Source of the DNA: a bacterium | GTDB taxonomy: Bacteria > Myxococcota_A > Bradymonadia > REDH01 | Reading direction: 5' to 3' | Length of the DNA: 64,000 bases | Assembly: GCA_030427825.1 (NCBI GenBank) | Contig: JAUICO010000008.1 | Coordinates: 513-64,512, forward strand | The DNA's letters: not shown here | Text below: a report on this DNA, generated by a model with database tools, continued

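Novelty: I know of separately encoded PKS plus AONS-like pairs (RkpA/RkpG and WcbR/WcbT in capsule lipid-anchor loci). I also know of other AONS-containing synthases (SxtA, fungal Fum8). I do not know of this fused KS-AT-ACP-KR-DH-AOS enzyme packaged with its own FAAL and PPTase. I cannot verify novelty without a database search.
How to check it: - Run antiSMASH and HMMER: PF00501, PF00109/PF02801, PF00698, PF00550, PF08659, PF14765, PF00155, PF01648.
- Run BLASTP or CDART of the whole 2126-aa protein and look for co-linear full-length hits and any MIBiG link.
- Express the three genes heterologously and compare lipid LC-MS/MS, with 13C/15N-serine, alanine or glycine feeding.
What would refute it: - The C-terminal domain fails to score as an alpha-oxoamine synthase, or lacks the PLP lysine when aligned.
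- Database hits show the same architecture already tied to a characterised product.
- The junction at about 56360..56500 proves to be an assembly artefact.
Basis: partly seen in the sequence, partly recalled or inferred. Interest (0 to 1): 0.85.

Follow-up and report, generated by a model that had tools for sequence, protein, structure and literature searches.

The cassette at 49280-58462 comprises three genes that ORF calling placed head to tail on the + strand, and the initial annotation had described its composition correctly in every particular, including the ORFs, the domains, the motif of the fatty acyl-AMP ligase (FAAL), and the GTGA overlap. The FAAL (594 aa) lacks a Pfam carrier domain and carries FLQYTSGSTSDPKGV at residues 166-180. 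Its longest ORF begins earlier, at GTG 49157; we preferred ATG 49280 as the start because a ribosome-binding site, GAAGGGGG, precedes it and the resulting length matches that of homologues (587-628 aa). The second gene (51276..57656) encodes the 2126-aa fusion of a PKS with an alpha-oxoamine synthase (PKS-AOS), in which Pfam delimited KS (residues 5-401), AT (551-839), PP-binding (951-1015), KR (1232-1395), DH (1448-1690), and Aminotran_1_2 (1772-2115) domains and detected no TE, ER, condensation, or thioester-reductase domain. The third encodes a 269-aa PPTase, whose GTG start overlaps the PKS stop as GTGA. In the PPTase, the catalytic core is followed by the peptide PKHA(A/V) in four tandem copies (residues 195-213; window 58235-58291).

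The window is chromosomal DNA (~64% G+C). Its gene content is typical of Myxococcota, with which the homologues agree, and includes housekeeping genes (PurN-type formyltransferase, dihydroorotate dehydrogenase, ComM-like ATPase, and aldehyde dehydrogenase) and genes for very large secreted repeat proteins with MopE, TSP3, and DUF4215 motifs. Three very large ORFs on the − strand (1639, 1759, and 1357 aa; 2705-13027 and 22970-27043), whose only matches (DUF4215, TSP3, amidohydrolase, or lamin-tail) are short, probably encode secreted repeat proteins. A restriction-modification pair lies directly upstream of the FAAL gene, consisting of a C-5 cytosine DNA methyltransferase gene (46836-48038) and an HNH endonuclease gene (48041-48985), and looks recently inserted: L087, the syntenic locus of the closest relative, lacks it. 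The G+C content of 46836-48985 is ~0.60, versus 0.64-0.67 nearby. Relative to L087, a second insertion appears to occupy 41877-45666, which encodes a 366-aa protein without a Pfam match and an 851-aa protein bearing putative metal-binding motifs of the MopE type: the ~380-aa unknown and the MBL-fold gene on either side of this segment are adjacent in L087. An 824-aa ORF (59674-62148, + strand) overlaps two better-supported genes on the − strand within 59170-61575 (DUF2804 and MBL/hydroxyacylglutathione-hydrolase-like). Only its C-terminal part is supported, by a pseudouridine synthase domain (residues 595-743), and the true start of its gene is therefore probably near 61.4 kb.

A search of 5.8 billion proteins recovered more than 120 co-linear full-length homologues of PKS-AOS (49-58% identity, 99-100% coverage), and window 46772-57984 was matched at 99.97% by a contig of another assembly (Logan, SRR24442553); thus, the junction preceding the AOS domain, about which the initial annotation had been wary, is not an assembly artefact. 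In the homologue alignment, the segment at ~56346-56507 is a normal linker between domains, with little conservation. The fusion is not unique, and its architecture is common in metagenomes. The MAGs of origin carry the labels Myxococcota, Deltaproteobacteria, Bradymonadia, or Alphaproteobacteria, and the homologues, where named, are called only "aminotransferase class I/II-fold PLP-dependent enzyme" or "8-amino-7-oxononanoate synthase". When one genome per GTDB species was scanned, the full DH+AOS fusion occurred in at least 14 species-level genomes, and those among the matches listed were all uncultured Myxococcota, "delta", or Bradymonadales MAGs.

Active-site residues were invariant (120/120) in an alignment of 120 homologues: Cys201, His336, and His373 in KS; Ser650 (GHSVG), Arg675, and His748-x-Phe750-His751 (x = Gly or Ala) in AT; Ser978 in ACP; Lys1331, Ser1354, Tyr1367, Asn1371, and Leu1311-x-Asp1313 in KR; His1469, Pro1478, Asp1618, and Gln1622 in DH; and His1841, Ser1913, Asp1938, His1941, Thr1970, Lys1973 (PLP), and Arg2096 in AOS. 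Every domain of the protein thus looks functional by its motifs. By the HAFH rule, the AT would be of malonyl type. B-type KR signatures mark 3R-hydroxy products, which DH domains turn into 2E-enoyl, and Leu1311-x-Asp1313 is predicted to be such a signature. The Pfam domain lists of the homologues include no ER family.

Pseudomonas fluorescens MYb115 makes C24-C28 sphinganines and phosphoglycerol sphingolipids with SgaA, an iterative type I PKS, and a separate AOS, SgaB; 6,101 homologous two-gene clusters were reported, mainly from Burkholderia, Bordetella, Methylobacterium, and Sinorhizobium (Peters et al. 2025, PMC12134224). They are the kind of gene pair that the initial annotation cited as WcbR/WcbT and RkpA/RkpG. 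Against the SgaB sequence taken from the supplement of that paper, the window AOS showed 50% identity and 71% similarity over 392 residues (390 bits), compared with 232 bits for the best canonical SPT structure and identities of 34%, 31%, and 28% to Sphingobacterium SPT, E. coli Kbl, and E. coli BioF, respectively. In contrast, the window PKS (KS-AT-ACP-KR-DH, no ER) differs from the SgaA homologue of an sgaAB locus in Pseudomonas sp. X10 (KS-AT-DH-ER-KR-ACP), with which it aligned only in KS-AT (30%) and a short KR stretch, and it shares its domain order with PfaA (508 bits to the PfaA model). The AOS half therefore falls within the SgaB clade, whereas the PKS is a synthase of another kind. 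AOS off-loading domains are already known from RedL and SxtA, and Fum8 acts in trans. A 2013 survey of assembly-line PLP domains listed A-CP-AOS, CP-AOS (SxtA), A-CP-KS-AT-AOS, CP-CP-AOS, and KR-CP-AOS (PMC3870968); KS-AT-ACP-KR-DH-AOS is absent from that list, and full-text literature searches found no characterised member.

An exhaustive HMMER search of 1.84 billion cluster representatives returned 4,180 AOS relatives (E ≤ 1e-30), and among the best 150 of these, most were C-terminal in proteins of 1,000-2,900 aa. The nearest AOS domains outside the family (~50% identity), taken from the scan of one genome per GTDB species, occurred in four layouts: FAAL-(ACP)-AOS in Planctomycetes (33 loci among the matches listed; fusions of ~1150 aa), KS-AT-ACP-AOS in actinomycetes, KS-AT-DH-ER-KR-ACP-AOS, and split SgaAB-like pairs. 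The third is exemplified by a 2565-aa protein of the cultured planctomycete Blastopirellula marina DSM 3645 (L036:3641-11335), which, by its domains, is effectively a fused SgaA-SgaB; both planctomycete types appear to be uncharacterised. A 1607-aa KS-AT-ACP-AOS protein of the same clade is encoded on Streptomyces anthocyanicus plasmid NZ_CP109572.1 (L091:3001-7824), where its gene forms a divergent pair with that of an MMPL-family transporter, which hints at an exported lipid product.

The FAAL assignment, made by sequence comparison, is solid. The top NCBIfam match was a FAAL subfamily, with a score under the subfamily cut-off, and the best PDB matches were E. coli FAAL 3PBK (8e-95) and then other FAALs. 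Alignment with the acyl-CoA synthetase FadD revealed a ~30-residue insertion immediately following the YGMAEAT motif, which we take to be the site of the FAAL-specific insertion. Family FAALs also share a conserved C-terminal tail beyond the adenylation fold (consensus RTMGxxGxxxTLAKHVARS; window 50950-51061) that is absent from E. coli FadD and may serve in docking or membrane association.

A homologous FAAL lies upstream of the PKS in 11 of the 13 family loci with sufficient upstream flank and also in L087, and a PPTase lies downstream in L003, L005, L006, and L087, as in the window. Eight family loci have a stand-alone ACP (82-85 aa) between FAAL and PKS (L001:7653-7910, L002:7701-7958, L003:7466-7714, and five further loci). 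No such gene is present in the window, where the 211 bp between FAAL and PKS are non-coding and a family-ACP search of the 64 kb was empty; the family occurs in ACP-plus and ACP-less forms. Clustering of ORFs from 16 loci yielded no further widely conserved neighbour besides an HpnA/OleD-like extended SDR, which adjoins PKS or FAAL in three distant family members and whose class would be compatible with a lipid 3-oxo reductase. An NAD-dependent epimerase-family extended SDR in the window (15733-16707, − strand; 32% identity, E 3e-48, to the PKS-adjacent SDR of the distant locus L013) is a weak candidate for the missing 3-ketoreductase, although it is 33 kb from the cassette. In one sub-clade, PKS-AOS is followed by a conserved protein of ~380 aa (L001:14461-15603, L002:14428-15555, L015:~12144-13233, and L011:~19919-21052) that has neither a Pfam match nor a homologue in the window.

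From what was observed here, namely the set of genes and domains, their intact active sites, the identity of the FAAL, and the place of the AOS in the SgaB clade, we infer a route to an amino-keto lipid. The PPTase would prime ACP Ser978, and the FAAL would adenylate a fatty acid and load it onto the PKS's own ACP or, in many relatives, onto the stand-alone ACP instead. The acyl chain would pass to KS Cys201 and undergo one condensation with malonyl from the AT; KR and DH would then give a 2E-enoyl-ACP, with no ER acting, and the AOS would join this to an amino acid (probably L-serine) in a decarboxylative condensation, releasing a 2-amino-3-keto-4-ene long-chain base. We are fairly confident that the FAAL primes the PKS and that the AOS off-loads the chain as an amino-keto lipid; the full sequence of one round, serine, and a retained double bond is tentative.

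A single extension is preferred because a dedicated fatty-acid loader precedes a single module, and an iterative module yielding a polyene seems quite improbable. Similarly, retention of the double bond is preferred because the DH dyad is invariant and the homologues' listed Pfam domains include no ER family; a trans-acting ER, which would give a saturated base, is rather improbable. Purified SgaB condensed acyl-CoAs with L-serine almost exclusively (PMC12134224), and we consider it unlikely that the window AOS uses a different amino acid. Decay of the cassette is very improbable: the ACP-less layout recurs in L005, L008, L011, and L087, which argues for a maintained variant.

The proposed novelty holds only in part. 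This is not a categorically new route, since PKS-to-AOS sphingoid synthesis is published, AOS off-loading is known, and the architecture is widespread. As far as could be established, neither the fused, ER-less, PfaA-ordered, FAAL-primed form nor its product has been characterised. If the model is true, 3-keto reduction would lead to a sphingosine-type, delta-4-unsaturated base with no desaturase needed; the fused ER-less form yields a specific, testable chemical prediction.
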